Source: a virus (lineage: Duplodnaviria; Heunggongvirae; Uroviricota; Caudoviricetes). From it: a stretch of 64,000 nucleotides of DNA. A model generated the notes under the pieces. The model saw only the letters and a list, made by a program, of their open reading frames with translations, was not told the origin of the DNA and searched no databases. Shown one piece after another: positions 6,006 to 64,000 of the stretch. The translations under genes and the position numbers were made by a program. The first letter of the stretch is position 1; the number at the start of each line of letters is the position of its first letter. The stretch lies in IMG/VR virus record IMGVR_UViG_3300021963_008171, positions 10,995 to 74,994 of that record, one strand, 5' to 3'.

Positions 6006-6006
6006 T

Positions 6007-42918: not shown

Positions 42919-42933
42919 GGACATTTTTTGGGC

Positions 42934-42944
42934 GATATATAAAA
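42934..42944 (+). promoter_or_regulatory. GATATATAAAA motif
   Basis: Ends 1 nt before ATG 42946. Confidence 0.35.
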
Positions 42945-42945
42945 T

Positions 42946-48076: not shown

Positions 48077-48077
48077 T

Positions 48078-48983
48078 ATGAAGGGATTGATTTTTGCTGG
48101 TTGTTCTTTTACCTGGGGTCAGGGATTATATTACTATTCGGGATTGAATACTTTAGTCGAGCCTGAACCAGATTGTTATGATGCTAGTCTTATCACAGAT
48201 GCCCATAAAAGATATATGGAAACACTGAGATATCCCAGGATAGTTGCAAATCATTTCAACACGTTTGAGTTGGTGTCTAAGCAAAATGGAGGATCTGAAG
48301 AAAGTTCGATTGATTTTATTAATTCAGCATTTGGAATTGGGGAAAAATTTGGATTTTTAACAGATCAGGAATTTTCTTTTAGCGAAATAGAATATGTTAT
48401 AATACAAACATCCCAACCGAATAGAAATGGATTTTACTTCCAATACGAGGGAGAGGAACATAAATTCTTGATTCACGAAAAATCATCAAAAGGTAAATTT
48501 TACGAATGGCTTATAGAAGAAAGAAAATTAACTATCGATGAGTGGTTTGAAGAGCACAAGGAAACATACATTGAGAAAATAAAAAGATTGATGAAGTTCC
48601 TTGAATCCAATGGAATTAAAACGAAAATACTCTGCTGGGAGAACGATTATTTAAATCTAATCAGATCTGATATTTTTATGTACAACAGATTTATCCCGTT
48701 GGAATACAGAGGGGATCAATTTTCGTCCATAAGAGATTTAATGTCCAAACACTCGCATCTTACCATAAATTCAGATTATGATAACTTTCAGGATCCTCCG
48801 AAGGATCACCATCCATCTAAAGAATGTCACCAGGTTCTAGCAGAATCTGTTATAAAATCTATAGAAAGTGATCTGAAGAATTTAAGCGAAACCCATATTT
48901 TTGATGATCACAGGGAGTTTATGAAAACTCTTCCTTGTCCAGCAAAAGAGCCAATTATAAAAAAGGCTAAAACCCTTATATAG
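48078..48983 (+). CDS. divergent SGNH-like hydrolase
   Basis: ATG 48078 is in frame with track ORF 48051. The N-terminus LIFAGCSFTWGQG has GCS in place of GDS. The C-terminus is PKDHHPSKECHQVLAESV. Confidence 0.45.
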   Translation: MKGLIFAGCSFTWGQGLYYYSGLNTLVEPEPDCYDASLITDAHKRYMETLRYPRIVANHFNTFELVSKQNGGSEESSIDFINSAFGIGEKFGFLTDQEFSFSEIEYVIIQTSQPNRNGFYFQYEGEEHKFLIHEKSSKGKFYEWLIEERKLTIDEWFEEHKETYIEKIKRLMKFLESNGIKTKILCWENDYLNLIRSDIFMYNRFIPLEYRGDQFSSIRDLMSKHSHLTINSDYDNFQDPPKDHHPSKECHQVLAESVIKSIESDLKNLSETHIFDDHREFMKTLPCPAKEPIIKKAKTLI

Positions 48984-50421
48984 GTTTTTCTGGTGGATAT
49001 GGATAAGTACCTGTTTCGAAGTGCGTTATTCTTCCATCGTTAAGATTAACTACTGGAATGGATTGATCAACTTTTATAGCCCCATACCATTCAGCTAATT
49101 CTGGAAAAGTCTCTTTGAAGTTCTTACCCCTTCTACTATCATATTGTACATAGAAGCTTTTGAAATCATGGTGTAGTATCGATTTATCGTCTTCTGTTGT
49201 ATTGTGCCCTTTCTCTACAACCTGTATGTAATCCAATAATCTTTGAACCTGAGCAAATTCTCCAACACTGAATAAATTGGGTGTCATTTTTTCGTTGAAC
49301 CATTTACTCAATTTTGCATGAAGCTCAGCTTTGATTTCATCAGGAAGAACTAATGGTGACATAAATGCCGGCCATCTTAGAATATTAAGATCAACGTTTG
49401 GTTTATTTGCACCATATTTCTTTTTTAGTTCTATCATATCATCCAAGAAATCAGTGATGCTAAATAGACATAAACTGTTGATTGTCATCATTATGGTTAA
49501 AGATCTTAATTTAGCTCTTTCGATTAAGCTAACAAGATTGCTTCTCCATGTTTCGTAAACTAATCCGTCTCTAATATATTCTGCATGTCTTCCATAGGAT
49601 TCGTTGCTAGTATAGATGTCCATTTCTTTAATGTCCATCGTGTGTGACATTGCTATCATCTTCTCTAATGTTTGTTCTGTCATTCCGAGATTTGAATTAA
49701 CAGCAAGTCTTAGATTAGGAGAAGGGTTGGATTTTAATATGTCTATGAAATCCCAAAAATTGTGGCTCAAAGAAGGCTCTCCCCCTGTAATTCTGATCTC
49801 CTCTAATGTTTGAGATAACTCTGGCCACCATTCGAAAAAAGCCTGTACGAATGGATTCCTTTCGTTATACTTTCCAAATATTTCTGACCAAGAACCGTCA
49901 CTTCGGTATGCACCCGCTGAATCTGTTCTCATCTTTTGATATGGACCAAATTGCTGAATTTCCTTTCCCCACGTGGTACTGTATCCTGCATTACAATAGC
50001 TACACGCAAAATTACAAGTTCTATCAAAGCTTATTTCTAATGTCTTTAAAAGAATATCATCTCTGTAATCGGTCTCTTCTATTTTAGCTATGTCTTCCTC
50101 GTTATAGATGATGCTTTTGTAAACCCTGTCAGATACATTGTTTCTCCCTATGTCCTCTATTTTCCAGCAATAAGAGCATTCTGCAGGTCTAATGCCACTA
50201 AGCATCATTTTTCGCATTTGCTTTTTATGCCTTGTGTTGTGAATTGCAGAAGGATTTGTTTTTATTTCTTCCAAGTCTATAGGATGCGGAAGGGGTAAAT
50301 GGCAGGATCCGGTGTATCCATGTCCAAGATGTATACTTGCATTGTACCATTTCGCTGCACAAAAGCTTTTGCTTATCTTATTAAGGTTTTTTTCTCTCCA
50401 GTCTATCAGTTCTTTTGACAT
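48976..50421 (-). CDS. radical SAM enzyme (paralog of 50989..52383)
   Basis: CxxxCxxC in DRTCNFACSYCNAGYS. The N-terminal Cys/His cluster is CAAKWYNASIHLGHGYTGSCHLPLPH...ECSYCWKIED. Confidence 0.75.
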   Translation of the reverse strand: MSKELIDWREKNLNKISKSFCAAKWYNASIHLGHGYTGSCHLPLPHPIDLEEIKTNPSAIHNTRHKKQMRKMMLSGIRPAECSYCWKIEDIGRNNVSDRVYKSIIYNEEDIAKIEETDYRDDILLKTLEISFDRTCNFACSYCNAGYSTTWGKEIQQFGPYQKMRTDSAGAYRSDGSWSEIFGKYNERNPFVQAFFEWWPELSQTLEEIRITGGEPSLSHNFWDFIDILKSNPSPNLRLAVNSNLGMTEQTLEKMIAMSHTMDIKEMDIYTSNESYGRHAEYIRDGLVYETWRSNLVSLIERAKLRSLTIMMTINSLCLFSITDFLDDMIELKKKYGANKPNVDLNILRWPAFMSPLVLPDEIKAELHAKLSKWFNEKMTPNLFSVGEFAQVQRLLDYIQVVEKGHNTTEDDKSILHHDFKSFYVQYDSRRGKNFKETFPELAEWYGAIKVDQSIPVVNLNDGRITHFETGTYPYPPEKPI

Positions 50422-50429
50422 AGTCTAAA

Positions 50430-51011
50430 TTATATTTGGTGTAGAAAATTGCAGTTATCTGTTAGATCGTAGCTTTTTCCGTGGATGAATTCTTCGAATA
50501 CATGCTTACTTATAGTTTCTTCGTCTCTTATTATTTCCAGTTCATGAAGAATTACCTCAAGATAATTGAGATTAAATTCATTTTTCGGGAAATTCCCAGC
50601 TCCAAATATTATATGTGAATTTGTGTCTGCTGCTAATTTGTCGTTTATAAAATAAAGGGTTAATGCATTTCCGTCTATATAAACAGTTATTACACCATTT
50701 CCTTTTGTTACCAACAATTCATATTTTCTGTTTGGCTCCCATTCAAAGTTACAAGAAAGATATTCAGTTTTTCCTTTACCGTCAGTAACAATTAATAGCA
50801 TGCCATATTCCTCCAGATCTATTCCAAGGTAGCTGGGAAGTTTAGCAAATAGAGTTGATTTTCTAGTTATTTCTTTCTCTAGTTCAAAGACTAGCTTAAA
50901 ACTAAAATCCCCTTCATAATCAAATATGTGATTTGCTGGATCTTTTATGAATTTTTGTCCTAATATATTAGGCCACATTATCCAGGGTTCACCCTCTTTT
51001 ATTTTTAACAT
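50430..51011 (-). CDS. LamG/concanavalin-like jelly-roll protein
   Basis: FSFKLVF...RKYELLVTKGNGVITVYIDGNAL...NSHIIFGAGNF...LEVILHELEII fits the Laminin_G_3 pattern. Confidence 0.5.
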   Translation of the reverse strand: MLKIKEGEPWIMWPNILGQKFIKDPANHIFDYEGDFSFKLVFELEKEITRKSTLFAKLPSYLGIDLEEYGMLLIVTDGKGKTEYLSCNFEWEPNRKYELLVTKGNGVITVYIDGNALTLYFINDKLAADTNSHIIFGAGNFPKNEFNLNYLEVILHELEIIRDEETISKHVFEEFIHGKSYDLTDNCNFLHQI

Positions 51012-52383
51012 CTTCGTAGAATTTTTTTAGTTCAGGAAAGGTTTTTATAAAATCTGTACCTCTTCTTTTATCGTGTTCATCAACAAACAATACAAAATCT
51101 TTTCTATTTTTTTCAACGTCGAATCCATCCTCTGATATAGCATAGTCATAGATTCTTTTTATCTTTTGAATCTCAACATCGGAAAATCCATAATTATCGT
51201 GTGTGAATTCAGGTGTTGCGTAATAGAATGCTTTTTGAGCAGCTTTGAATATGAGCTCTTTGTGTTCGTCGTTAAGTATTTTAACCGACTGATGCTCTGG
51301 CCATCTTAGATAGGATGTATCTAGCTGTATGGCAGATATCCAATACCTTTCTTTGTTTTGGTATTTCTTTTTTAGCTGGAATATCTTTTCTATTAACTTA
51401 GAATACCCAAACACCGACATTGCGTTAAACGTTGCCATAACGTTCACTGTGACCTTCGGAAGTTCGGTTAGGATAGTTTCTACATTTTCGAAGAAGTGGT
51501 CAAAATTGAGCCCGAAACGGATGTATTCGGCTTGTTCTTTCCATGCTTCACACGAGGTAAATACTATTAGCTCGTTTACCCTGTTTTCCTCAATTATTTT
51601 TTTACACAATTTCACAAATTTTTCTACCAGATTTTTAGGAACACCAAGATTGGTATTGATTGAAAGATTTAATTTTCTATTAGGTTCCTCGGTTTCTGCT
51701 ATGAATTCTAATAACTTCCACGTGTCTTTTGAAAGAAGTGGTTCACCACCAGTTATTCTAAATGTGTGTAAGTCGTTGTAAAGATCTGGCCACCATTCCC
51801 AAAATGCTTCAACGTATGGATTTTCTTCTGAATGCTTGTATGGTATTTGTCCGGTTTCCCTGGGCCATTTAAGATCATTAAAATTTGTTGATGTTGGATA
51901 TCCCCCATGATTTTCTATTTCTTCCATCCATTTGGAAGAAAACATAGGGCTACAATAGGAGCATTTGAAATTACACGTGTTTGAAAAATTAACCTCAACA
52001 TATTTTGGATTGTAATCTGAGCTCCATCTTAGATTTTTAATTTCGTCCATGTGTGGAAATGACCATGGCTCTGAGCTTTTGAAAACCCTATCAGAAAAAG
52101 ATTCTGAACTATCTTCCACCTTCCAACAATAATTACATTCCTCGGGTCTTTGCCCATTTAACATTTCCCTTCTCACCTTCTTTTTGTGCTTGGTGTTGTG
52201 AAGAGCCGATGGATTATTTTCCAGTTCGCTCAAAGGAATTTTATGTGGAATCGGGTGATGACATGAATGCGTCATTCCATTATGAAGATGCATAGTAACT
52301 TGTGTCCACTTAGCGAGACACATCCCACATCCAGTTGAATTTAATTCTTTTCTTGTTTCCTCAAAAATTCTTTGATCGCTCAT
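50989..52383 (-). CDS. radical SAM enzyme (paralog of 48976..50421)
   Basis: SNTCNFKCSYCSPMFS. The N-terminal cluster is CGMCLAKWTQVTMHLHNGMTHSCHHPIPH...ECNYCWKVED. Confidence 0.75.
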   Translation of the reverse strand: MSDQRIFEETRKELNSTGCGMCLAKWTQVTMHLHNGMTHSCHHPIPHKIPLSELENNPSALHNTKHKKKVRREMLNGQRPEECNYCWKVEDSSESFSDRVFKSSEPWSFPHMDEIKNLRWSSDYNPKYVEVNFSNTCNFKCSYCSPMFSSKWMEEIENHGGYPTSTNFNDLKWPRETGQIPYKHSEENPYVEAFWEWWPDLYNDLHTFRITGGEPLLSKDTWKLLEFIAETEEPNRKLNLSINTNLGVPKNLVEKFVKLCKKIIEENRVNELIVFTSCEAWKEQAEYIRFGLNFDHFFENVETILTELPKVTVNVMATFNAMSVFGYSKLIEKIFQLKKKYQNKERYWISAIQLDTSYLRWPEHQSVKILNDEHKELIFKAAQKAFYYATPEFTHDNYGFSDVEIQKIKRIYDYAISEDGFDVEKNRKDFVLFVDEHDKRRGTDFIKTFPELKKFYEDVKNKRG

Positions 52384-53825
52384 TATGCTTTACAATTTAT
52401 TAAAAGTACGTTATTGCCAAGATCCTTCGCCGTGATTAATTCATATTGCATATTATTAATCCCGTCGCTCTTGTAATCTATGGATCTTCTTTGCATTTCT
52501 GTAACAAATCTTCTTTCGTTTCTGGCTGTTGTTTCTCCCTTAGCCCATTTATTGTTTACTAATCCTTCGTCAACATGTGGCATGCATTCAAAATCTCCTT
52601 CTCTTCTAAATGGTATTGGCATATCAGTAACCGAAAAATCCTTCTTCTCAAATTCCACATTTTTATGATCTGCTCTTACTCCTTTTATTAAATCTGGTAT
52701 TTTTTCTGCTGATATATTTTCAAAATCATAATGCAAGACAGGATCTATTTTCTTTGAATGAAAATCCGATATTTGACTAGCATTATCTACGAATTTATCA
52801 AATATAAGTAATTCTGCTATCTCTCCCCTGAAATTTATAGGATTTCCTTTATCTGCATTGGTTCCTAAATACATCGGACTTTTATCTTCGTAATTGAACA
52901 TACCTCCAAATATGTAAGTGGATTTTTCCTCCTTGATGCCCTTTTCGTTAGATTTTCCAAGCTCGTCATTAAGAAAAAAGTTAAATCTGGACTCAGATTC
53001 TTTATACGAAGTTGTCACCCATGTCCATTCTTCGTCACTTCTTTTGAGCCAATTGTAAAACATAGTTTTGTCCTGGTTGTAAACCATGCTTGTTACTGCT
53101 CTTGAATTATTGAAAGAGATTGAATATGGACAATAGCTTTGCTTTCTAAAAACTGGAAATTCTATAAATTGTTTATCTTCCTCCCCTATTAACCATTCGT
53201 TATACTTTTCATTCTGTTGCTGAGCCCGGAATAAAACCGCTATGGTGTGATCTTTGGTTAACAGGTGATTCATTTCTTTTTTGTGAGGAATCTTTATCCA
53301 TGAATCCTCCCCATTAAAAATTGCAACATTCTTCTGATCGTACTTTTTATACACCCTGCAGTTAGAGTATCCCTCGAAATGAGCACGGAAAAAAAGATCA
53401 TCGTCTTCCATTCCCCAATCCCAATAGTTATTAGAATATCCATTTGTTCTCTCCACCTGCTCCTTGGTAAAAAGAACCACCCCGCCAAAGTATTGTTCGT
53501 AATTTAATTTGTAATCATACTTTGATAGTTTGGTTGCTATATGAACAGGATTTTCTCCTGGGTAGGAATAATCACAGTCTTCTGACACTGGTATCATATC
53601 AATATCGTGCCATGCTATGTAATCACATCCGTCATCAAAAGCAAACTTGGCTGCAATGTTCTTCATTAAACCCCGGTTAAAGAGTTTATCGTCCATTTGA
53701 TTTGCAACATAGAATTTATGTTCTATTCCTCTCTTGTTCAGAAATTCTGTCAAGTGCGGAACTAGTTTTTGTAAATGTTCGTATCTATTTCTGTATGGGA
53801 TACAGATTCCAAGTTTATGTTTCAT
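52383..53825 (-). CDS. GT7 (beta-1,4-galactosyltransferase-like) glycosyltransferase with an inserted LamG-like domain
   Basis: Start ATG 53825, forming an ATGA overlap. IPYRNRYEHL..., FNRGLMKN, HDIDMIPV and YFGGVVLFTKEQVERTNGYSNNYWDWGMEDDDLFFR compare with mammalian B4GalT1 [36 protein letters not shown]. The C-terminal tail SDGINNMQYELI... resumes the GT7 fold after a ~230-aa insert. Confidence 0.8.
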   Translation of the reverse strand: MKHKLGICIPYRNRYEHLQKLVPHLTEFLNKRGIEHKFYVANQMDDKLFNRGLMKNIAAKFAFDDGCDYIAWHDIDMIPVSEDCDYSYPGENPVHIATKLSKYDYKLNYEQYFGGVVLFTKEQVERTNGYSNNYWDWGMEDDDLFFRAHFEGYSNCRVYKKYDQKNVAIFNGEDSWIKIPHKKEMNHLLTKDHTIAVLFRAQQQNEKYNEWLIGEEDKQFIEFPVFRKQSYCPYSISFNNSRAVTSMVYNQDKTMFYNWLKRSDEEWTWVTTSYKESESRFNFFLNDELGKSNEKGIKEEKSTYIFGGMFNYEDKSPMYLGTNADKGNPINFRGEIAELLIFDKFVDNASQISDFHSKKIDPVLHYDFENISAEKIPDLIKGVRADHKNVEFEKKDFSVTDMPIPFRREGDFECMPHVDEGLVNNKWAKGETTARNERRFVTEMQRRSIDYKSDGINNMQYELITAKDLGNNVLLINCKA

Positions 53826-55234
53826 ATGCCTACGTCTACCCAAGTTATATTCTTGTCTTTTTTTATTCCGTGTTCTGTGAATTTGATTCTGAATACACCA
53901 TCATCTTCATCTGATGATGACATACTATAATTTTTAGAAACCTCGTTGATGAACCTCAATTGATTCCATCTAGTTGCCTGATCCTTCCATTTATTTTCAA
54001 AGAATCCATTCTCACTGTGACCAAGTGCTTTGAATAATCCCTTCCTCCTTCTGGGAATTTCTAATTTTTTGTGTGATGGAATTTCCATTTCCCTGATATC
54101 ACAATTGAATATTCTAGCATGATTCCTATTTCCGGATTGATCTACCAATCGATAATTTCTGATACTTTTTGCATTGTAAAGAAGATGTAGCTCGTTAGAA
54201 ATTTTATATTTTCTAAATTTTTGATTTTTAGTTAATTCCTCTACCTCTTCTTTGGATAAACATTTCTTGACAACTGCAAATGAGTCTATCAGTCCTTTAA
54301 ACATATTAGGATCTCCTATTCTGTGTGGATTTCCTGCTCCTAGATAAAACAAATCAACATCATCATATGACCTTAAAGATTCGAATCCCTCAGATTCTCC
54401 TATTAATTCACCATCCTGATAGAATTTGATTTTCTTTTCTCCTAATGATATTGTCACACAAACTGTAGTTTGATAGTTTGTTTTAATATCGGAATTCACG
54501 TAAAAAGCTTTTTCTTCCTTATCGAATGTTACAAAATTGTATCTCTGAAAAGAATTATAAGAAACTGCAGTGTCATATCCAGGTAAGCTAAATGCTGTAA
54601 AAACGTCCGAATCCTTTGTGTGATCACACTCGATATCTTCTGGATAAAAAGAAACAAAAAATGTTAGATCCGTATCAAGATCAAAATTGTTTTTAATCTC
54701 GACGTAAGAATTAATTCCATTAAAATATAATGCTGTGAATTTCTTTTTTGAATTCTTAACAAATCCAAAATCAGTCTCACATCCGTTTCTAACGCATCTT
54801 AATAATAGATCATCGTCTTCGAATCCCCATCCCCAATATCTGTTTGAGTAACCATTTATTCTTCTAAATTCATCTGCTGGAAAAATAGTAACACCACCAA
54901 AATATTGATCGAAAGTCTTTTTTGTATTTCCAGATTCTACCTCCACTATATTTTTAGCCAAGTGAACTGGGAATGGTGAATAACTATAATCAACATCAAC
55001 AGGAAGAAGATCTATGTCATGAAATACCACATAATTACATCCAAGTCTTTTTGCGTATTTGAATCCAATATTTAAGAGCATCCCACGGTTAAATTGCTTA
55101 GCATCATCTTGGTTGATAATGATAAGCTCGAATGAGATCCTTTTCTCGTCAAGATAATTTATTAGATGTCTCTTGAATGCTAGAAGATGCTCCCATCTGT
55201 GCCGATGAGGTACTATTACTCCTAGTTTATTCAT
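53822..55234 (-). CDS. GT7 (beta-1,4-galactosyltransferase-like) glycosyltransferase with an inserted LamG-like domain (paralog)
   Basis: VPHRHRWEHL, FNRGMLLN, HDIDLLPV and YFGGVTIFPADEFRRINGYSNRYWGWGFEDDDLLLR. The insert contains FKGLIDSFAVVKKCLSKEEVEEL. The tail ...NITWVDVGI compares with B4GalT1 ...TQITVDIG. Confidence 0.8.
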   Translation of the reverse strand: MNKLGVIVPHRHRWEHLLAFKRHLINYLDEKRISFELIIINQDDAKQFNRGMLLNIGFKYAKRLGCNYVVFHDIDLLPVDVDYSYSPFPVHLAKNIVEVESGNTKKTFDQYFGGVTIFPADEFRRINGYSNRYWGWGFEDDDLLLRCVRNGCETDFGFVKNSKKKFTALYFNGINSYVEIKNNFDLDTDLTFFVSFYPEDIECDHTKDSDVFTAFSLPGYDTAVSYNSFQRYNFVTFDKEEKAFYVNSDIKTNYQTTVCVTISLGEKKIKFYQDGELIGESEGFESLRSYDDVDLFYLGAGNPHRIGDPNMFKGLIDSFAVVKKCLSKEEVEELTKNQKFRKYKISNELHLLYNAKSIRNYRLVDQSGNRNHARIFNCDIREMEIPSHKKLEIPRRRKGLFKALGHSENGFFENKWKDQATRWNQLRFINEVSKNYSMSSSDEDDGVFRIKFTEHGIKKDKNITWVDVGI

Positions 55235-55430
55235 TCAAATTATCGTTTTCTTCTACGAATTTAGTGTGGAATTCAGACAGATAGAATTGGATTCGGTTGC
55301 TCCATTCGTTTTTGTCTATCTCCTCTACCCAAGCTGTTAGGTCTTCCATACAGTTTGCAATCTTTTCTAATGCTTTAACCTTTCTGATTTCCAGGTCTTG
55401 TGGATTTTCTGTTTTTTTAGATACTGACAT
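55227..55430 (-). CDS. hypothetical small acidic protein
   Basis: 67-codon ATG ORF with an 8-nt overlap onto the downstream gene. Confidence 0.45.
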   Translation of the reverse strand: MSVSKKTENPQDLEIRKVKALEKIANCMEDLTAWVEEIDKNEWSNRIQFYLSEFHTKFVEENDNLNE

Positions 55431-55441
55431 GATTTCTGTTT

Positions 55442-56287
55442 TTATATGGATGTGATAATTTTTATTAATTTTTTCCAGGAAGTGTATCCATCATAGCTGT
55501 TTACATTCTGCTCGAACATAAATGAAGGATCGCTTACGTCTAGTTTATTCTCTATTATAGCATCATACATCTTTTTATATTCGGATGAAAATGCATATTG
55601 TGAATTTACGTCCGCCACAGCCTTGATCCTTTCTAGACACGTTGAATCCCATTTGAAGTGATGAACTTGGACCGAGTATTTTTCAACTGGAGCAATTAAT
55701 GGATGATTCCACCCCTGCCATTTCCATGTTGTATAGCCATCTATCTTTGCATAGTGCTGGCCAGAAGTTATTTGAACGTGCCCCTTTACCAAACAAACTT
55801 TATTTGGGCAGGCATTACTTAGTGGATATCTAAAAAACCCAGCAAGTGGAAATTGAGAAAATATGTCTTTTCCTGATCTTATTCTGGGGAATTCACCATC
55901 TTCTCCTAATCTATCAACAAATCCACCTCTAACCAAATCCCACCCATTTTTTTCGCAGTCGTCTGCTATTCTTCTTGGATGATCGTTGTAAAGATGAAAT
56001 TCATCAATATCAGCAACCATCCACCAATCGTTAGGATGCTCATATTTACAAGAATTATAAATTGTGGTTACCTCTTCCCAGTCAAAACCCCTACTTTTTC
56101 TGGATCCGCAGATTTTTACATTCTTGTGATCCTTTATCTTTTCCTCTACCTGTTTTTTTAAATCTGGATAAAGATCCGATTCATAGACGTAAAACAAAAT
56201 TTCATCCACATTAAATTTACTATAATGTTGAATGAAGTGGGGTATAAGATTAACCCCGTGTCCTATTACTGATACGACTCTAAGCAT
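55442..56287 (-). CDS. glycosyltransferase-like protein (GT2_4/GT92-like, DxDEF motif)
   Basis: DWWMVADIDEFHLY resembles the dW....D.DEf motif of the Glyco_tranf_2_4 and GT92 families. Confidence 0.45.
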   Translation of the reverse strand: MLRVVSVIGHGVNLIPHFIQHYSKFNVDEILFYVYESDLYPDLKKQVEEKIKDHKNVKICGSRKSRGFDWEEVTTIYNSCKYEHPNDWWMVADIDEFHLYNDHPRRIADDCEKNGWDLVRGGFVDRLGEDGEFPRIRSGKDIFSQFPLAGFFRYPLSNACPNKVCLVKGHVQITSGQHYAKIDGYTTWKWQGWNHPLIAPVEKYSVQVHHFKWDSTCLERIKAVADVNSQYAFSSEYKKMYDAIIENKLDVSDPSFMFEQNVNSYDGYTSWKKLIKIITSI

Positions 56288-57011
56288 TTTTTCTTTTTAA
56301 TATAGTTATACCGCTCGAAGCTGGTTTTTCTTTTAATCTTCCATAATTGAATAAATTAAAAATTTCCCATTCATCGTTATTAAAATCCTTTACGAATTGG
56401 GAAGGACCTGAGAAATCATGGAAATCCTTTTTCTGGTCCTCTGTTACTATATAATTTTCTGAAAAGCTTGGATCTGTGTCGTGTATAGCGATTATCCCAT
56501 TCTTTTCCATTATCGTGCTGTACATATTAAAATCCTTGGAAACCCCTTCATATGAATGATCGCCGTCTATAAATAAGAAATCTATTTTGATGTCTTGCAT
56601 TATAAAGAAATCATAGAATGCTTTCTCTGATGTTTCTTTTATAAATCTTGGGTGGAAATTAGATCTATAGAATCCAGATTCGTCCATCATATTGGATTGT
56701 CCCCCGATTCCATTGCAAGGATCTACCACGTAGGTAGCTCCGATATCTCCCCAATTGTAATCGGGATTTCCTTCGAATATTCCCGAACCGTGTAAATCTA
56801 TTCTTGCCTGTGTCATTATCCTAGGAATAAAACCTCCCCCGCTCCCAATACACACGCAATTTTTAGATCTTGTAAACTGGATAAGCGAGTATATTAATAG
56901 TCCATCGCCTAGATCAGAATCCGTTGCACCATGTGACCAGCGGAAAGGTACAGGAATTTCCCCGTCGTTTGTTATCTTTTCCCTGATATAATCTAAATTC
57001 AATACCATCAT
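56280..57011 (-). CDS. class I SAM-dependent methyltransferase (Methyltransf_24/CmcI-like)
   Basis: Motif I CVCIGSGGGFIP, then FLFIDGDHSYEGVSKDFNMY...GIIAIHD. Confidence 0.6.
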   Translation of the reverse strand: MMVLNLDYIREKITNDGEIPVPFRWSHGATDSDLGDGLLIYSLIQFTRSKNCVCIGSGGGFIPRIMTQARIDLHGSGIFEGNPDYNWGDIGATYVVDPCNGIGGQSNMMDESGFYRSNFHPRFIKETSEKAFYDFFIMQDIKIDFLFIDGDHSYEGVSKDFNMYSTIMEKNGIIAIHDTDPSFSENYIVTEDQKKDFHDFSGPSQFVKDFNNDEWEIFNLFNYGRLKEKPASSGITILKRKNA

Positions 57012-57116
57012 TTTATTTTATCAATTAAGGATGAAAGATTTCACCAAAACGAAACTTAATAGTAAACAAATAGTATTACATTTTATATTCGGAAGGATTT
57101 ATATTATATTTACACC

Positions 57117-57899
57117 ATGGGACAAAAAATAATGACAATAGGGGACGTTCACGGGAGGGATACCTGGAAGTTTCTGACCCATGGGAGTAGTTATGAATTC
57201 GAGCAATGGTCTATTATGGTCGAAAATGGTGCGGATCCCAGTGATGAAATGTTCAAGGATGATTATCCATATTTCGGGGTAGATAAGATTGTTTTTATCG
57301 GTGACTATGTTGATAGCTTCACGGTATCAAATGTTGAGATTAAGAGAAATCTGGAAGACATTATTATGTTTAAAAAGAAAATGCCGGATAAAGTGATTCT
57401 TCTTTGGGGAAATCATGATGTTCAGTATTTTATCCCAAATCAAATTTGCAGCGGGTTTAGACCAGAGGCTAAATGGGACTTACAAATTCTATTTGATCAC
57501 AACAAAGAGCTTTTTCAAATGGCGTATCAGGAGGGAGAATATCTTTGGACCCATGCTGGTTTATTGAAACCGGTTCTTTCGGATATGCTAAAAATGTACC
57601 CAGATTTGAAAGAATTTAAAACTGAGATGGATATTTTGAATCATGCTTTTGAAATGGAAATTCCACAGATATTTCAGGTCGATGGAGCAAGTGGGGGATG
57701 GAGTATGTATGGAGGACCTTTATGGGTAAGACCTAAACAGCTCGAGCAGTACGGATGTAGATTGAATCAAATAGTAGGTCACACCCCGCAGAAAAAATTA
57801 GTTGAAATTGAAACAGGTCATGGTTATAAAATCTGGCTAACGGATTACATCGAATATAATGAAGAATCGGAGATCATTCCATTTATACTAGAGATATGA
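57117..57899 (+). CDS. calcineurin-like metallophosphoesterase
   Basis: MTIGDVHGR, VFIGDYVDS, LWGNHD and WTHAG. Confidence 0.85.
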   Translation: MGQKIMTIGDVHGRDTWKFLTHGSSYEFEQWSIMVENGADPSDEMFKDDYPYFGVDKIVFIGDYVDSFTVSNVEIKRNLEDIIMFKKKMPDKVILLWGNHDVQYFIPNQICSGFRPEAKWDLQILFDHNKELFQMAYQEGEYLWTHAGLLKPVLSDMLKMYPDLKEFKTEMDILNHAFEMEIPQIFQVDGASGGWSMYGGPLWVRPKQLEQYGCRLNQIVGHTPQKKLVEIETGHGYKIWLTDYIEYNEESEIIPFILEI

Positions 57900-58180
57900 T
57901 ATCAAAAAAGACAAAAGAAAGAGCGAAACAAATTATGAATGGAACATATACTCCGCCGGAGCCTGAAAAAATTGCTGTTAAATTCGAGGTCACAGAAAAA
58001 CAGTATAAAAAATATAAGAGATGGAGAAATGCTAAAACTAAAAAAGACGGGGAGCTTTATGTCGGAACAATCGGAGGAGCATATACTTTTTGCTTTACTG
58101 CAACCGGAATAGGAGAAATAGTAACGGTGAGAGCAGCAGACGGAGACGAGTTAGATTTAACAGATTATAATACTTGGTAA
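57896..58180 (+). CDS. hypothetical protein
   Basis: 94 codons with an ATGA overlap onto the phosphoesterase gene. Confidence 0.5.
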   Translation: MISKKTKERAKQIMNGTYTPPEPEKIAVKFEVTEKQYKKYKRWRNAKTKKDGELYVGTIGGAYTFCFTATGIGEIVTVRAADGDELDLTDYNTW

Positions 58181-58782
58181 TGAAGGTAATATTTTTAGAT
58201 CACGATGGAGTGATATGTCTTTCTAATAATTGGGGAGGTAGAATGAAGAAGCAGAAAGAGTATGGCAGAAAGATGAGCCAATCTGTTAATGAACTTCCTG
58301 TGGAGGTTAGATTCGATAATTTTGACAAAAAAGCAATTGACACATTAAATGAAATACTGGAAGAAACTGGTGCTGAAATTGTTGTCTCATCTGATTGGAA
58401 AAGATGGGCCACTGTTGAGGAGATGGGTGAATATTACGAGTCACAGGGGATCAAAAAGAAACCCATAGATTGTACTCCATATTTCAGAGATCTCATGAAA
58501 GACGGAAAGGCTCCTAAAATAGGAGAATTTCACTATCAAAGATTTGAAGATCTTGAACAGGAGAGGCATTTTGAAATCCTGGATTATTTAAGAGATCATC
58601 CAGAGATAACACATTGGGTTGCTATTGATGATTTAAATATGGGTATCGACATTGTTTATACCGACGGACAGGAGGATCAAAGATATTGGGGACTTACAAA
58701 TTTTGTTTGGACGCCAAGAGAAGATGAAGGAATTAAACAATCAGGTATCAAAGAAAAGATTTTAAAATTTTTAAAACAATAA
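58180..58782 (+). CDS. HAD-like phosphatase-fold protein
   Basis: ATG 58180 forms a TAATG overlap. Motifs VIFLDHDGVI, VVSSDWK and VAIDDLN. Confidence 0.55.
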   Translation: MKVIFLDHDGVICLSNNWGGRMKKQKEYGRKMSQSVNELPVEVRFDNFDKKAIDTLNEILEETGAEIVVSSDWKRWATVEEMGEYYESQGIKKKPIDCTPYFRDLMKDGKAPKIGEFHYQRFEDLEQERHFEILDYLRDHPEITHWVAIDDLNMGIDIVYTDGQEDQRYWGLTNFVWTPREDEGIKQSGIKEKILKFLKQ

Positions 58783-58787
58783 TAATT

Positions 58788-58973
58788 ATGGAATACGCAC
58801 CGGTTTTTGGATTAATGTTTATAGTAGTTGCTTTCATATCGTGGCAATGGGTTAGAGGTATTGACAACATGAAAAAGAATCATCCTGATTACAAAGGTGA
58901 GGATTTTTTAAACTGGGGAGATGAAGATATCGATGACGAATTTAGCAGGCAAAATAAAAATAATAACAAATGA
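58788..58973 (+). CDS. small single-pass membrane protein
   Basis: TM segment YAPVFGLMFIVVAFISWQWV. Confidence 0.45.
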   Translation: MEYAPVFGLMFIVVAFISWQWVRGIDNMKKNHPDYKGEDFLNWGDEDIDDEFSRQNKNNNK

Positions 58974-59329
58974 AAAGAGTATTAAAAAAGATTTTTATCA
59001 ACAAATTCTCGGAGATCCTACTGATTATTTTCGTAGCAGGATTCTCTCTTGATCTTTTAGCGTTCCCACTAATGAGCGCACCGAGTTCAATAAAGAATAT
59101 AATAGGAGGTGCAATTCTGGTTTTCTTTGTCATGTTCATCGTTATGTATGCAAGTGAAATGCTATCAGACGGAAAAAAAGAAGCCGAAGATTCTGAGGAT
59201 CCGGGAGAAACTGAATTGGATTATATCCCGAAGGATAAGCTACCAAAAAAGAAGAAAAATTCCAAGCAATTTCCCGAAATTAAGAGCGATGAACCCTTTG
59301 TAAAAACAAGAAAGAAAGCAAAAAAATAG
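58970..59329 (+). CDS. two-helix membrane protein with a charged tail
   Basis: Helices EILLIIFVAGFSLDLLAFPLM and IIGGAILVFFVMFIVMYA. It sits directly upstream of the SPFH gene. Confidence 0.5.
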   Translation: MKRVLKKIFINKFSEILLIIFVAGFSLDLLAFPLMSAPSSIKNIIGGAILVFFVMFIVMYASEMLSDGKKEAEDSEDPGETELDYIPKDKLPKKKKNSKQFPEIKSDEPFVKTRKKAKK

Positions 59330-59333
59330 TAAT

Positions 59334-60251
59334 ATGAATTTCGAAGAAAGATATGCTCAACAAATCAAAGAGAGGGAAGAGCAAGCACAACAAGAAAAAT
59401 TAAAAAAACAAATAAAACAAAAACAGATGATGAGAAACATTTTAATTGGGGTTGGGTTATTTTTTACACTAACCTTTTTATTCTTCTCTTGTGAGAGGAT
59501 CGATGCAGGACACGTTGGCGTCAAGGTGAATCAGTACGGGGATAATAAAGGCGTGGATGATGTTGTTGCAGTTACCGGTATGGTATTCTTTAATCCATTC
59601 ACAACTGCAATCTATGAATTTCCAACTTTTATTCAACACAAAGAATATAAAGGAGAGAATTCATTTGTGGTAAATAGCAAAGATGGTTCTGAATTTAGTG
59701 TTTCTCCTATTATGAACTACTCCGTACAGAGAGATAAAGTACCAGCAATCTTTAGTAAGTATCGTAGACCATTAGAAGATATTGAAGAAGGCTTTTTAAA
59801 AACTGCTGTGTATGATGCTTTTAGATTGGCAACTAATAAATATACTGCGGATGAATTAATTTCAAACAGAGCAGTATTTGAAATTGAGGTTCGCAGATTA
59901 CTAGACGGACAACTATTAAAAGAGGGTTTTATCATTAATCAATTCACGTCTAACCTGATCTACCCAGAAACATTTAAGAAATCTATTGAAGCTAAAAATA
60001 ATGCGGTACAAGCAGCTTTAAGAGCTGAGAACGAAGTTAAAACTGCAGAAGCACAAGCTAAGATTAAGGTAGCAACTGCTGAAGGTAATGCACAGGCTAT
60101 GCTAACGTCTGCAAAGGCAGAAGCTGAATCAAATAGAATGAAACAGCAGACATTAACACCACTGTTATTGCAATTGGAGTACATTAATAAATGGGACGGA
60201 AAACTTCCTGTTTATGGAACTGCACCTATGTTATATAAACCGGTTAACTAG
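59334..60251 (+). CDS. SPFH/band-7 (prohibitin-like) membrane protein
   Basis: N-terminal TM helix, IDAGHVGVKVNQYG, and a C-terminal Ala/Glu/Lys coiled region ...ALRAENEVKTAEAQAKIKVATAEGNAQA.... Confidence 0.8.
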   Translation: MNFEERYAQQIKEREEQAQQEKLKKQIKQKQMMRNILIGVGLFFTLTFLFFSCERIDAGHVGVKVNQYGDNKGVDDVVAVTGMVFFNPFTTAIYEFPTFIQHKEYKGENSFVVNSKDGSEFSVSPIMNYSVQRDKVPAIFSKYRRPLEDIEEGFLKTAVYDAFRLATNKYTADELISNRAVFEIEVRRLLDGQLLKEGFIINQFTSNLIYPETFKKSIEAKNNAVQAALRAENEVKTAEAQAKIKVATAEGNAQAMLTSAKAEAESNRMKQQTLTPLLLQLEYINKWDGKLPVYGTAPMLYKPVN

Positions 60252-60278
60252 GATTTACAAGAAACTAAATCTTCCTCC

Positions 60279-60297
60279 GAATATATAATCCTCAATT
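60279..60297 (+). promoter_or_regulatory. GAATATATAATCCTCAATT: promoter-like motif upstream of the tmRNA
   Basis: Combines the ATATATAA core with AATCCTCA(A)TT, which also follows the core in the two leader boxes. It ends 16 nt before the tmRNA 5' end. Confidence 0.45.
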
Positions 60298-60313
60298 AGT
60301 TCTTTTAAATATT

Positions 60314-60725
60314 GGGGATGACATGGCATTTGATCCGGATGTGGATTTTAATACTACACGCAGAGGTATGGTACTCATCCTCTTTAATCTCGGTACAAAC
60401 AAGTAAACGACGTAGAATTATCTACCATGACTTTCGAAGACGCAATGTCTTTCGTAGGTGCTGATTACGCACTAGCTGCCTAATCACTCCCGCACACATC
60501 GTGGGACTTAAAATAGAATGTGTACCAAGGTGTGATTTCTACCCAAAAAGGAATAAGGTCACGTTCAGAGGACTACCTTAATACAAGTGAACTCGACACA
60601 GTTATTGGTAACGATGTCAAAATAGGAACCATTTATTTTGTTAGGCAAGAAAAACTAGCTAAGCGTGTGAGACGTTAGTATTATTATTTCTTTCGGAGAC
60701 CGGGGTTCGAATCCCCGCATCTCCA
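60314..60725 (+). ncRNA. ssrA: tmRNA (transfer-messenger RNA)
   Basis: 5' GGGGATG pairs with CATCTCC (60718-60724), including a G3:U pair. T-arm CGGGG-TTCGAAT-CCCCG. Discriminator A at 60725. The internal tag frame ends ...GGT GCT GAT TAC GCA CTA GCT GCC TAA (GADYALAA*, stop 60481-60483). Confidence 0.9.
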
Positions 60726-60737
60726 CAAATTTTATAT

Positions 60738-60812
<75 letters not shown>

Positions 60813-60823
60813 AATTTAAAATC

Positions 60824-61207
60824 ATGTCTACCAATTGTAATATCTGCAGCGAAAAATGTTTTGGAAAGGATGGATATGATGGAAGTTGCTGTACAATAGA
60901 AGCACGTGACTATATCATAGGTCCACATAAGGACGCTAAGCAATTCATTCAATCATTATCATTAAAGCTCGGAAGAGAGATCAGCTACGAGTCAATATTC
61001 ATTGATTACGAAGAAGGAAAAAGACTTTTTCCCGACAAATCCGCATGGCAAAGCCCAACTTCATATCCTGCATTCAGAGTTGATCTAAATAATCCAAGAA
61101 ACCCCTGCATCTTTTACAATACAGTAGTTAAATCATGTATGGTATATGATATCAGACCAGAAACATGCGAGACATATCAATGCGATTATCTTAAAAGTAA
61201 TCTCTGA
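60824..61207 (+). CDS. YkgJ-family (CxxCxxCC) Cys-cluster protein
   Basis: ATG 60824 is in frame with track ORF 60752, whose 5' part overlaps the tRNA. CNICSEKCFGKDGYDGSCC...CIFYN...CMVYDIRPETCETYQC. Confidence 0.6.
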   Translation: MSTNCNICSEKCFGKDGYDGSCCTIEARDYIIGPHKDAKQFIQSLSLKLGREISYESIFIDYEEGKRLFPDKSAWQSPTSYPAFRVDLNNPRNPCIFYNTVVKSCMVYDIRPETCETYQCDYLKSNL

Positions 61208-61214
61208 TATATAG
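61206..61214 (+). promoter_or_regulatory. GATATATAG motif variant
   Basis: Overlaps the stop of the previous gene. Lies 19 nt before ATG 61234. Confidence 0.3.
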
Positions 61215-61233
61215 ATGCAAAACACGTGCATCA

Positions 61234-62046
61234 ATGATTAAGAAGTATCTAGATTTTATTAATGAATCCATAAAATATCTTTCAACCCAAGAGTTTTTCA
61301 ATTGGCTAGAGGAAAGAAAGGACCATGTATTCATTGCTCTTGACACAGAAACTACTGGGCTAAAAGGTCCAAGGATAGATCAATTGACTCAAATTGCTGC
61401 TATTGCTTTTTCTTTTGATTATGATTCTCTATCATTCTTGGAAATTAGCAGATACAATAAGAAGATCTCTTTAACTCCAGAAATTAAAGCATTAAAACAA
61501 TTACCGGATTCTGAAATTCAGGGAGCACTTAAATATAACAGATACGGCGTAAGCGGAGGAAAATTCCAAGACGAGCAGGTAGTTATAAACGAATTGGTAG
61601 ATTTTGTTGCACAATTTGATAAAAGCATTTTATTAATTCAAAATTCACCATTTGATATGCCAATGATTAATGTCAGGGCTAAATTTCAAAGACTGAATTC
61701 AGAGGTATTTGATACAAAAGATTTCTTTGCATATTTCTTAATACCAACTCTTCAAAGATTAGCAGATACTGATCCAGAAGCCCAAAGTATATTGGATACT
61801 TTCGGTAAATCATCAAGTGGGAAGCTTTACACATCATCGCTTCCTAAGGTAGCTGCAGGACTTGGTGTTGACCCGAGTGGAGCGCATGATGCATTATACG
61901 ATTGCTCATATATGGTTGAAACCCTGGAAAAAGCGTTTCAAATAGTTAGAAATAATTCAGATTTTGACAGAAAAGATTTAATCAGACAAAGAATACTAAC
62001 AGATCGCTATATGAAAGCGAAGAATAAGGCAGAAGGAAGACTATGA
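61234..62046 (+). CDS. DEDD-family (DnaQ-like) 3'-5' exonuclease
   Basis: ExoI VFIALDTETTGL, ExoII LLIQNSPFDMPMI and ExoIII GAHDALYDCSYM. The N-terminus is MIKKYLDFINESI. Confidence 0.85.
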   Translation: MIKKYLDFINESIKYLSTQEFFNWLEERKDHVFIALDTETTGLKGPRIDQLTQIAAIAFSFDYDSLSFLEISRYNKKISLTPEIKALKQLPDSEIQGALKYNRYGVSGGKFQDEQVVINELVDFVAQFDKSILLIQNSPFDMPMINVRAKFQRLNSEVFDTKDFFAYFLIPTLQRLADTDPEAQSILDTFGKSSSGKLYTSSLPKVAAGLGVDPSGAHDALYDCSYMVETLEKAFQIVRNNSDFDRKDLIRQRILTDRYMKAKNKAEGRL

Positions 62047-62735
62047 TAAAGAACTTTTCATCATACATTAATGAGCAGTATTCCAATCCAAAAGATGTGG
62101 TTAATCTGAAATATGGCACCCCTCAGATGGATCACAAAGAAAAAATGGATCAAGGATCATCCCTATATTCCTCCGTGAAAGACACAGATCTTTGGAAAAA
62201 GTGGACTTCCACCTTTCCTCCGGCGCAGAGTTCAGAAGATGCTATAAAATCCCTAGAAGAATTAATTCTAATTGGATCTTCACAAACCCCAGAGGATAAA
62301 GAATTTGTTAAAGATGCTGAACATGATATGAAAGGCATTTTCGTTAAATTTTTAAAACTCAACGGAGTAGATAATATAACTGTAGAAGATCTTAAAGAGA
62401 TATCCAAAGAATTAGATCCTATAACATTTCATCTGAAATACATTTTTAATTATCCAAGACCTCACCAATTAGCAGGCGAATTGGAAATCCCGTTATACCC
62501 TTCTCAAACAACAGATGCATGCAGTCCTGCATATCCGTCGGGTCATTCTATAGATTCATTCGTTATGGGAGGATTAATAGGTAAAAAAATACCTCAACTC
62601 CGAAACGATGTTCTAAAACTGTCTGAAAAAATTTCCAGATCTAGACTTCAAGGAGGTATACATTTTTCTTTCGATCAGGAGTTTGGGAGACAAATTGCAG
62701 AGGATATTTTAAACCTTGATTTTTTGTCTCTCTAG
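62043..62735 (+). CDS. PAP2-superfamily phosphatase
   Basis: NYPRPHQ (the RP of motif 1), YPSGHS, and SRSRLQGGIHFSFD (SRx5Hx3D). The N-terminus is MIKNFSSYINEQ. Confidence 0.75.
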   Translation: MIKNFSSYINEQYSNPKDVVNLKYGTPQMDHKEKMDQGSSLYSSVKDTDLWKKWTSTFPPAQSSEDAIKSLEELILIGSSQTPEDKEFVKDAEHDMKGIFVKFLKLNGVDNITVEDLKEISKELDPITFHLKYIFNYPRPHQLAGELEIPLYPSQTTDACSPAYPSGHSIDSFVMGGLIGKKIPQLRNDVLKLSEKISRSRLQGGIHFSFDQEFGRQIAEDILNLDFLSL

Positions 62736-62794
62736 AGCCATTTTTTCCCTTTCTAAAATAAAATCACCTTCTTTCCTGTTTAATCATATTTCTT

Positions 62795-62806
62795 GAATAT
62801 ATAAAT
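62795..62806 (+). promoter_or_regulatory. GAATATATAAAT motif
   Basis: 32 nt upstream of ATG 62839 of the collagen-like gene. Confidence 0.4.
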
Positions 62807-62838
62807 GAACTCGATAGAGTCAAAATTCAAAGAAATAG

Positions 62839-64000
62839 ATGCCATTAATTTTAAGAAACGTCAAAGGTTCGGCTTTAACCATCAATGAGATGGATGATAA
62901 CCTTGAGTATTTATACAATAGGACATCGGTTGGAACATCAGGTACTGCTGGTACATCAGGTATTCAAGGATCCCAAGGATTTCAAGGTGCTCAGGGTCTA
63001 ACAGGACCTCAAGGTCTTAAAGGTGATACCGGGTCAACCGGAGCACAGGGTAGCACAGGATCAACCGGGGCTCAAGGAGCTCAGGGATTAACTGGTTCAG
63101 GAGCACAGGGAGCAGAAGGTCCAACCGGAGCACAGGGTAGCACAGGATCAACCGGAGCTCAAGGAGCTCAGGGATTAACTGGTTCAGGAGCACAGGGAGC
63201 AGAAGGTCCAACAGGGGCTCAGGGAGACATTGGATCTACAGGATCACAGGGAGCGCCGGGAACAGGAGCACAGGGAGCGCCAGGTCCAACAGGAGCACAG
63301 GGTGATACAGGTTTAACCGGAGCTCAAGGAATTAGCGGAACATCTGGCCAGTCAGGAGCACAAGGTCCAGCAGGTTCAGGAGCGCAAGGGGATCCAGGTC
63401 CAACGGGAGCTCAGGGAGACCCTGGATTAACAGGAGCACAAGGTCCAGCAGGGGCGGGAGCTCAGGGAGAGGCTGGTCCAACGGGAGCTCAGGGAGACAC
63501 TGGATTAACGGGAGCACAAGGAGCACAAGGTCCAGCAGGTTCTGGGGCACAGGGTGATTCAGGTCCAACCGGAGCTCAGGGGGACATCGGATTAACAGGA
63601 GCGCAAGGACCAGCAGGTTCTGGAGCCCAGGGTGCAGAGGGTGCTCAGGGAGCAACAGGAGCAGATGGATCCTCAATTACCTGGATGGGTGGATGGGTTA
63701 ATAATATACCATACGGAGAAAACGATGTAGTACAATATAATGGCAATTCCTACATAGGAACTGTAAATTCGATAACAGTAGGGGTAGCACCTGAAAATAA
63801 TCTAGCGGAATGGGACATATTTGTTCTTTCTGGGGAAGGAGCTCAAGGAGCAGAAGGAGCACAGGGTGCTAACGGAGCAGCTGGAGCACAGGGAGCAGCA
63901 GGTGAAGGAGCTCAGGGAGATGCCGGATCTGCAGGAGCGCAGGGAGCTAAAGGAGATGATGGGTCCGCAGGGGCACAAGGAGCAAAAGGAGACACAGGAG
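62839..64000 (+). CDS. collagen-like (Gly-X-Y) fibre protein with an embedded CBM5/12-like module; 3' end lies beyond the window
   Basis: Hand translation is open from ATG 62839 to the window edge. N-terminus MPLILRNVKGSALTINEMDDNLEYLYNRT. About 250 residues of GXY follow (GTSGTAGTSGIQGSQG...). A non-collagen block ITWMGGWVNNIPYGENDVVQYNGNSYIG...AEWDIFV lies at 63676-63828, after which GXY resumes. Confidence 0.85.
   Translation, partial: MPLILRNVKGSALTINEMDDNLEYLYNRTSVGTSGTAGTSGIQGSQGFQGAQGLTGPQGLKGDTGSTGAQGSTGSTGAQGAQGLTGSGAQGAEGPTGAQGSTGSTGAQGAQGLTGSGAQGAEGPTGAQGDIGSTGSQGAPGTGAQGAPGPTGAQGDTGLTGAQGISGTSGQSGAQGPAGSGAQGDPGPTGAQGDPGLTGAQGPAGAGAQGEAGPTGAQGDTGLTGAQGAQGPAGSGAQGDSGPTGAQGDIGLTGAQGPAGSGAQGAEGAQGATGADGSSITWMGGWVNNIPYGENDVVQYNGNSYIGTVNSITVGVAPENNLAEWDIFVLSGEGAQGAEGAQGANGAAGAQGAAGEGAQGDAGSAGAQGAKGDDGSAGAQGAKGDTG
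63034..63207 (+). repeat. 2 x 87-bp tandem duplication inside the collagen-like gene
   Basis: 63034-63120 and 63121-63207 differ at 2 positions. Each encodes 29 aa ((S/P)TGAQGSTGSTGAQGAQGLTGSGAQGAEG). Confidence 0.9.

Follow-up and report, generated by a model that had tools for sequence, protein, structure and literature searches.

A 742-residue fibre gene, the 5′ half of which lies at the right-hand end of the viral DNA analysed here (64,000 nucleotides, positions 10,995 to 74,994 of IMG/VR record IMGVR_UViG_3300021963_008171, hereafter "the window"), carries a small module with the fold of the carbohydrate-binding modules of families 5 and 12 (CBM5/12) between two long collagen-like segments. 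Taken as a whole, the locus is best explained, with a probability of about 0.55, as encoding a collagen fibre of a large phage, with a CBM5/12-fold collar, maturation through a C-terminal Peptidase_S74 domain, and rod lengths that drift between relatives. A preliminary description of the window had proposed a length-variable receptor-binding fibre with an internal carbohydrate-binding knob. That interpretation is partly supported: the fibre, its variable length and a CBM-type fold are borne out by the analysis, and binding of a carbohydrate or receptor remains putative.

The open reading frame (ORF) begins with an ATG at 62839 on the plus strand and stays open to the end of the window at 64000 (387 codons). 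Its missing part was found on a metagenome contig of 85,545 bp (ENA ERZ27296343 k141_1586432, here L001), which was retrieved via the exact protein sequence of a neighbouring PAP2-family gene, matches the window at 11,958 of 11,958 overlapping nucleotides and extends 8.5 kb beyond its end. The full gene occupies positions 10797-13025 of L001, its end being equivalent to window position 65067, and extending the reading frame as the preliminary description had suggested thus yields the 742-residue product. Its domain order is an N-terminal head, a first collagen-like segment, the insert with the CBM5/12 fold, a second collagen-like segment, a 43-residue tip and Peptidase_S74. Within the window, all on the plus strand, these comprise the head (residues 1-31, 62932 being the first base after it, i.e. 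62839-62931; MPLILRNVKGSALTINEMDDNLEYLYNRTSV), collagen 1 (residues 32-278, 62932-63672), the insert (residues 280-333, 63676-63837) and the beginning of collagen 2 (63838-64000).

The collagen-like nature of the rod is clear from Pfam family PF01391, matched at E = 1.6e-36 by the window part and at E = 1.7e-69 by the full protein, with the gathering score of 27.2 exceeded. Collagen 1 consists of 247 residues of Gly-X-Y (GXY) repeats, rich in GAQ and GxT triplets, and is interrupted seven times by a G-x-G break, termed G1G in collagen nomenclature (GSG, GSG, GTG, GSG, GAG, GSG and GSG at residues 86, 115, 141, 179, 205, 234 and 260), at a spacing of 26-38 residues. This agrees with the roughly 250 residues of GXY with periodic two-residue breaks that had been described, as does the resumption of GXY after the insert, which reaches base 64000. 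Collagen 2 comprises 283 residues on L001 with two G1G breaks, giving 247 + 283 residues of GXY and 9 such breaks in all. Proline content is very low (15 of the 530 collagen residues). The G+C content of the fibre region, 46% against approximately 35% for the window, is raised because of the Gly and Ala codons.

Collagen 1 contains a tandem duplication of 87 bp (29 codons), copy 1 at 63034-63120 and copy 2 at 63121-63207. The copies differ at 2 of 87 nucleotides, T/C at 63034 and G/A at 63069, exactly as first reported, and in the best register (63035-63125 against the sequence 87 nucleotides further on) a single mismatch remains in 91 nucleotides, far beyond chance. According to Tandem Repeats Finder, the duplicated pair belongs to a 3.5-copy array of 87-nucleotide units with 80% matches overall, which is followed by an array of 78-nucleotide units. 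Units of 87 and 78 nucleotides correspond to 9 or 8 triplets plus one two-residue break.

Variation of the rod could be followed in an orthologous locus found by scanning IMG/VR with the module (UViG_3300032331_003609, 244,850 bp; loci L003, L004 and L024). The locus is syntenic, with the same methyltransferase, phosphoesterase and HAD genes, both fibre genes described here and an ORF of 280 residues, and its gene products are 71-93% identical to those of the present phage. The orthologous fibre protein has 829 residues, with identities of 93.5% for the head, 79.6% for the insert, 93% for the tip and 91.8% for Peptidase_S74. Thus the insert is less conserved than the other globular parts (92-93.5%), and most of its substitutions fall in loop residues 31-43. 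Collagen lengths differ much more: collagen 1 of the orthologue has 393 residues with 11 G1G breaks, against 247 here, and collagen 2 has 224 residues with three G4G breaks, against 283. Part of the orthologous collagen 2 (L003 6303-6700) is replaced by a Ser/Thr-rich run of GTS and GSS triplets, and its G4G breaks read "GAANTG", suggesting that the composition of the rod as well as its length is exchanged between relatives. Repeat units likewise differ, with 102, 78 and 267 nucleotides in the orthologue against 87 and 78 here, and in both genomes there are young arrays whose units match at 92-94%. It is therefore suggested that these genes normally change as their repeats expand and contract independently, and we infer the 87-bp duplication, seen in a single short-read assembly, to be one recent instance. 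The comparison of repeats among relatives proposed in the preliminary description, made here with one orthologue in which both lengths and periods differ, thus favours a length-variable fibre.

That the duplication, and hence the exact length of the rod, is an artefact of assembling a repetitive region appears very improbable. The contig does stem from a short-read metagenome assembly, as its k141_ name indicates, the one further contig known from this strain (L002) breaks off after the first 30 nucleotides of copy 1, and repeats of 9, 27, 78 and 87 nucleotides are nested in this region. However, the copies differ at two positions, are in frame and lie inside a longer diverged array, as real duplications do, and the orthologous contig has well-matched, independent arrays of its own.

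The insert (I280-E333, ITWMGGW...WDIFVLSGE; ITWMGGWVNNIPYGENDVVQYNGNSYIGTVNSITVGVAPENNLAEWDIFVLSGE) had been described as a non-collagen stretch of 51 residues. Its presence is clear, and its length is 50 residues if counted as ITW...DIFV or about 54 up to the next GXY triplet. Alone, it matches only CBM_5_12 (PF02839) in Pfam, at E = 4-5e-4 and 20.4-20.8 bits, short of the gathering score of 26.2, so that of the two families named for a profile check in the preliminary description, collagen was recovered outright and CBM_5_12 below threshold. Homology is supported at the level of the module family. When the insert (57 residues) was run with HMMER against 1.84 billion representative proteins, 880 of these reached E <= 1e-3 and 163 reached E <= 1e-10, and many of the matching proteins have the module in 10-44 tandem copies. 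Whole relatives match CBM_5_12 at 1e-12 to 6e-63, and single module copies taken from relatives do so at E <= 0.01 in 61 of 61 cases (best 1.2e-10). The family profile spans, from end to end and at E = 2.7e-7, the chitin-binding domain (45 residues) of chitinase A1 from Bacillus circulans (ChiA1; 1ED7), and also matches CBM5/12 domains of chitin deacetylases and chitinases as well as several solved phage and pyocin fibres. An AlphaFold2 model of the insert built on the family alignment has a predicted local distance difference test score (pLDDT) of 93.5, and its comparison by Foldseek supports a CBM5/12 fold. In the viral structure library BFVD, the best matches to the model (template modelling scores of 0.8-0.87) are phage proteins annotated as "Collagen triple helix repeat", "minor tail protein", "tail fiber" and "ChiC_BD", together with collagen-like proteins of Tupanvirus and Megavirus. 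Absence of a CBM-like fold had been named as an outcome that would speak against the original interpretation; on the evidence of model and profiles the fold is present, and homology of the insert to CBM5/12 is supported.

The association of this module with collagen is widespread. Among the top 150 module-bearing representatives 125 contain collagen, and 337 of the 1135 module copies in these relatives are flanked by it at both ends. Of the 120 best database matches to the 742-residue protein, about 90 carry both PF02839 and PF01391, in a search in which collagen swamped the word index and the query's own cluster was absent from the matches. A search for homologous proteins with a two-module alignment gave no candidate, and the names of ten module-bearing clusters are all "hypothetical" or lacking. 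Some metagenome proteins (P0002, P0004 and P0013) are made up of the module in 30-44 tandem copies, either joined by short GXY linkers or lacking them. Others (P0064 and P0155) have hydrophobic N-termini that by eye resemble signal peptides, and such relatives look like cellular surface proteins, suggesting that the module family is not limited to phages.

The two ends of the protein bear on its assignment as a fibre. At the C-terminus, beyond the window on L001, residues 658-705 match Peptidase_S74 (PF13884, "chaperone of endosialidase"), the score being 25.9 bits over the full protein and 30.2 bits when the domain is taken by itself, above the gathering score of 22. The sequence SSILLK aligns with SDERLK of the solved tail fibre 8jov, so that the S74 dyad has its Ser-x4-Lys spacing. 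At the N-terminus, alignment of the head with its counterpart in the orthologue and with residues 1-35 of the tail fibre (QQO91846) and tail spike (QQO91847) of Flavobacterium phage immuto, both of which begin with the same motif, gives the consensus M..(L/K)R..(K)G(S/T)ALT..(E/Q)MD.N(F/L). A scan of viral contigs with this motif yielded at least 205 confirmed relatives, 80 loci of which were read. In these 80 the motif coincides with the ORF start or lies no more than a few codons away from it, and diverse proteins follow. About 30 of the 80 carry long collagen of 190-600 residues, and the combination of this head with a single module and S74 occurs among the 80 only in the orthologue. Scanning JGI metagenomes for the head with degenerate DNA recovered only one further contig, of the L003 type and cut after 77 codons. 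A Pfam scan of the head gave no family match, and a single tblastn match has an E value of only about 2; the weight lies in the position and recurrence of the motif. Since one motif heads different fibre and spike proteins of one phage, the head is presumed to be a shared virion-attachment peptide. The resemblance to conserved heads of phage fibres that had been pointed out is confirmed in this way and, together with the collagen repeats and Peptidase_S74, supports the assignment as a fibre gene.

A second fibre gene starts five bases downstream (L001 13031-16384, equivalent to window positions 65073-68426). Its product of 1117 residues consists of collagen, a globular middle, collagen and an S74 domain matched at E = 1.4e-16 that has the canonical end SDERLKENI. 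Its N-terminal start is formed by a paralogue of the insert (MANVQWLGEWISSSPYGNGDIVTYQGITY...NWNVVVTSG, 32% identity). The globular middle, approximately 200 residues containing Cys and Trp, has no match in Pfam, and a second small module (NYVIGTVVSY...W.I.L.G) directly precedes the second collagen run. Modules of this latter kind are common elsewhere: many collagen/S74 fibres of other viral contigs found via the C-terminal domain (L005-L021) start with ...D.VQ.S....NY(I/V)IG.VVSY...G.L...P....G.G.Y..W.V.L.G directly before GXY, a module for which Pfam has no name.

The following assembly can be proposed for the 742-residue protein. The C-terminal S74 chaperone would bring three chains into register and then cut itself off, whereupon the collagen segments would zip into a triple helix. 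With the rise of 0.286 nm per residue of the collagen triple helix, rods of about 71 nm and 81 nm would result. The head peptide would fix the fibre to the virion. Each chain would loop out and back at the insert, forming a three-lobed collar about halfway along a continuing rod. In the CBM5 fold the N-terminus and the C-terminus lie side by side, and are linked by a disulfide in CjCBM5 (PMC8449059); with adjoining termini the chain could return to the fibre axis at the place where it departed from it, and three modules would then make up a collar. This collar is predicted at about 47% of the length here; in the orthologue, with predicted rods of about 112 nm and 64 nm, it would lie at about 64%. 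Flexible points may be provided by the G1G breaks and by the collar. DNA with a 9-nucleotide period and longer units of 78-87 nucleotides would recombine or slip easily, and rod length and collar position would therefore change quickly between relatives.

Several points weigh against this reading, and in particular against a collar that binds sugar. The fibre, known here from sequence, may be a tail fibre, a head fibre or a whisker; the duplication is known from one short-read assembly; and the formation of a triple helix by collagen so poor in proline is assumed by analogy with prophage collagens (PMC3368898). The CBM_5_12 match of the insert, besides being below threshold, covers only model positions 2-29 of 44. 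CBM5/12 domains bind their ligands through exposed aromatics, i.e. a nearly invariant Y-W/W-W pair and a third Tyr, and a further two conserved aromatics are part of the hydrophobic core (PMC8449059). When the insert and 1ED7 are placed on the family profile, residues Y16, Y29 and W49 align on conserved ChiA1 aromatics, including the two assigned to the core in that study. Trp687 of ChiA1, however, aligns to Val40, so that the canonical chitin-contacting aromatics are absent, and the Y-W/W-W pair aligns to non-aromatic loop residues, not only in the insert but across the whole module family. In 61 family members, positions 6, 10, 16, 29 and 49 are aromatic in nearly 100% of cases, and no position of loop 31-47 is aromatic in more than 5%. 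Because the conserved aromatics are those of the hydrophobic core and the loop is non-aromatic, the W...Y pattern first taken to indicate a CBM5/12 module is a signature of the fold and not of a binding site. Sugar and receptor binding by the canonical CBM mode is accordingly doubtful as judged from these alignments, and the insert was filed as "CBM5/12-fold, ligand site not conserved" rather than as a bona fide CBM5/12. The family profile also falls outside the receptor-binding tip in two solved fibres: in the long tail fibre gp015 of phage 7-7-1 it matches residues 29-66, within an N-terminal region (1-120) that anchors to the baseplate (PMC12796354), and in the short fibre gp33 of cyanophage A-1(L) it matches residues 139-180, within a joint domain (111-215) that binds wedges (PMC10966104). 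Finally, the 1117-residue fibre lacks the head motif and carries the module at its extreme N-terminus, the usual position of an anchor.

What the collar does is thus less certain than its fold. The role ranked first, with somewhat less than even confidence, is weak multivalent adhesion to a glycan of the host surface via a non-canonical surface. It is favoured because the collar would be the largest globular element left after S74 cleavage, only the 43-residue tip being distal to the rod; because the insert is the least conserved globular part, with substitutions mostly in the loop that is the counterpart of the CBM ligand loop; and because relatives string together dozens of module copies, as multivalent adhesins do. 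Ranked second, and rather unlikely in our view, is a module that serves as a structural joint or docking element and not as a sugar binder, in which case the N-terminal paralogue of the 1117-residue fibre would be an anchor that docks on the collar or on a baseplate protein to give a jointed or branched assembly. The missing ligand aromatics and the matches to the anchoring parts of gp015 and gp33 would fit such a role, as would the match of the family to the baseplate protein All3316 of the Anabaena contractile injection system, and the start of fibre 2 with the module in place of the head motif, which is repeated in the orthologous contig. Against it, nothing tested gave any sign of two such modules binding each other, the alternation of up to 44 tandem copies with short collagen resembles a repeated bead for adhesion or spacing rather than a specific docking site, and low conservation between orthologues would be unusual for an assembly interface.

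Trimerisation domains set the register and nucleate the helix in other collagens, and a small, fast-folding module without ligand could play a similar part, nucleating or stapling a triple helix that is low in proline. The very low proline content, the many copies directly flanked by GXY on both sides, and the presence of one module before each collagen run of fibre 2, the second of a type that heads many related collagen/S74 fibres, are compatible with a node of this kind. It is nevertheless improbable and ranked third, since the S74 chaperone already provides trimerisation, CBM5/12 domains are monomeric in enzymes, and most of the 80 head-bearing collagen fibres read have no such module. It is tempting to speculate further that the collar docks fibre to fibre, the 1117-residue protein plugging onto the mid-rod collar to build a branched, all-collagen adsorption apparatus whose GxT triplets may be decorated by products of the adjacent glycosyltransferase, epimerase and radical-SAM gene cluster (see below), an arrangement to which we give still lower odds. 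Adhesion to a host glycan remains the tentatively preferred role.

Each component of the proposed fibre is known from other systems, namely collagen-like phage fibres, fibres matured by S74, and CBM5/12-fold modules in fibres. For the insert the closest known relatives are the chitin-binding modules CBM5/CBM12 (PF02839; ChiA1 1ED7, Serratia ChiB 1E15, Streptomyces ChiC 2D49 and Vibrio chitin deacetylase 4NY2). Unlike these, it has Val or polar residues in place of the exposed ligand aromatics (W687, Y-W/W-W), an additional conserved W-x-G-x-W at its N-terminus, and a location within collagen instead of an attachment to an enzyme. Fibres and spikes such as K1F endosialidase and the L-shaped fibre pb1 of T5 are matured by a C-terminal Peptidase_S74 chaperone. 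The present protein resembles them in its C-terminal S74 domain above threshold, its Ser...Lys motif and its coiled-coil-like tail, but differs in having a collagen shaft instead of a triple beta-helix and SSILLK instead of the usual SDxRxK, with cleavage being predicted. Collagen-like side-tail proteins are found in E. coli O157:H7 prophages, where EPclA/B are trimeric, with globular ends, a hinged stalk and no hydroxyproline, and have been shown by experiment to form triple helices (PMC3368898). They have other terminal domains (PfN, PCoil and PfC), much shorter collagen and no internal CBM-type module.

Most of the 120 best database matches already bear annotations of both collagen and CBM_5_12, and the design is common in phage and metagenome proteins. 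The same module occurs within or between GXY runs in proteins of an uncultured Caudovirales phage (A0A6J5M145), Tupanvirus and Megavirus and in a minor tail protein of Streptomyces phage Saftant. However, these proteins mostly have several to dozens of modules and other termini, whereas the present protein has only one module, together with the KGSALT..EMD.N head and an S74 end. Having one head and one collar along with the S74 domain is what is specific to the present locus, which otherwise represents no new kind of system. A literature search gave no paper joining the terms collagen-like, tail fiber and chitin-binding.

Collagen-like fibres are among the commonest and least understood adsorption structures of uncultivated phages, and this locus offers a clean and complete example, with a presumed anchor peptide, a rod, a CBM-fold collar, a further rod and a chaperone predicted to cleave itself. 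Comparison with the orthologue shows that rod lengths and collar position drift quickly with the globular parts fixed. A warning for annotation also follows: collagen-associated "CBM_5_12" modules (880 representative proteins) keep the core of the fold and not the known chitin-binding surface, and to read them as binders of chitin or cellulose is unjustified from the label alone.

The genome is probably that of a tailed phage, uncultivated and large or jumbo in size. When window positions 44000-64000 were searched at near-identity against the DNA of 50,697 phage records, no match was obtained. Phage-type family matches in the window include a Ro-like RNA-binding protein (phrog_850), radical-SAM proteins and a nucleotide-sugar epimerase. 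PHROG "tail fiber" matches of the window protein were set aside, their alignments being only to collagen repeats. A giant-virus origin, considered in view of the collagen, beta-1,4-galactosyltransferase-like glycosyltransferases of family GT7 and a 2-oxoglutarate (2OG) oxygenase, was rejected on the basis of the S74 fibres, the head motif shared with a Flavobacterium myophage, the tRNA array and the orthologous IMG/VR contig. The only matches in cultured phages for the head and for an ORF of 767 residues are to this myophage, immuto; together with the G+C content of 35% they allow the weak guess that the host may possibly be a member of the Bacteroidota. The 767-residue ORF has a stretch of 140 residues whose sole resemblance is to an immuto "lectin C-type domain" protein (E = 1e-5). 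Neither Pfam nor PHROG gave a match for the ORFs of 562, 767, 297 and 831 residues (window positions 4317-9194 and 42946-45441), nor for the two ORFs downstream of the fibre genes (281 and 572 residues) and most large ORFs of the window. A scan for promoters and terminators around the fibre genes gave nothing above chance. After the fibre block and two family-less ORFs, seven tRNA genes (Ser, Thr, Ser, Leu, Arg, His, Pro; L001 19227-20461) form an array, and a tRNA-Met gene lies in the window at 60738-60812.

A few kb upstream of the fibre genes, a block of 15 kb (41695-57011) is devoted to sugar and modification genes. It encodes three radical-SAM proteins (41695-42918, 48976-50421 and 50989-52383), two NAD-dependent epimerase/dehydratases, one of them fused to a 2OG-Fe(II) oxygenase domain (45438-47105 and 47102-48076), two GT7 proteins, one with a Laminin_G_3 domain (52383-53843 and 53822-55234), a GT2-like protein (55442-56287) and a methyltransferase (56280-57011). 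Possible targets of these enzymes are the Thr-rich collagen fibres or glycans of the host. Between this block and the fibre genes are a metallophosphoesterase gene (57117-57899) and a gene for a HAD_SAK_2 "RNA repair" HAD domain (58174-58782). Further upstream, a Ro60/TROVE-like RNA-binding protein is encoded at 26845-28470 (Pfam TROVE, 2e-6; phrog_850, 5e-42), and these last three genes hint at a set for RNA repair or quality control.

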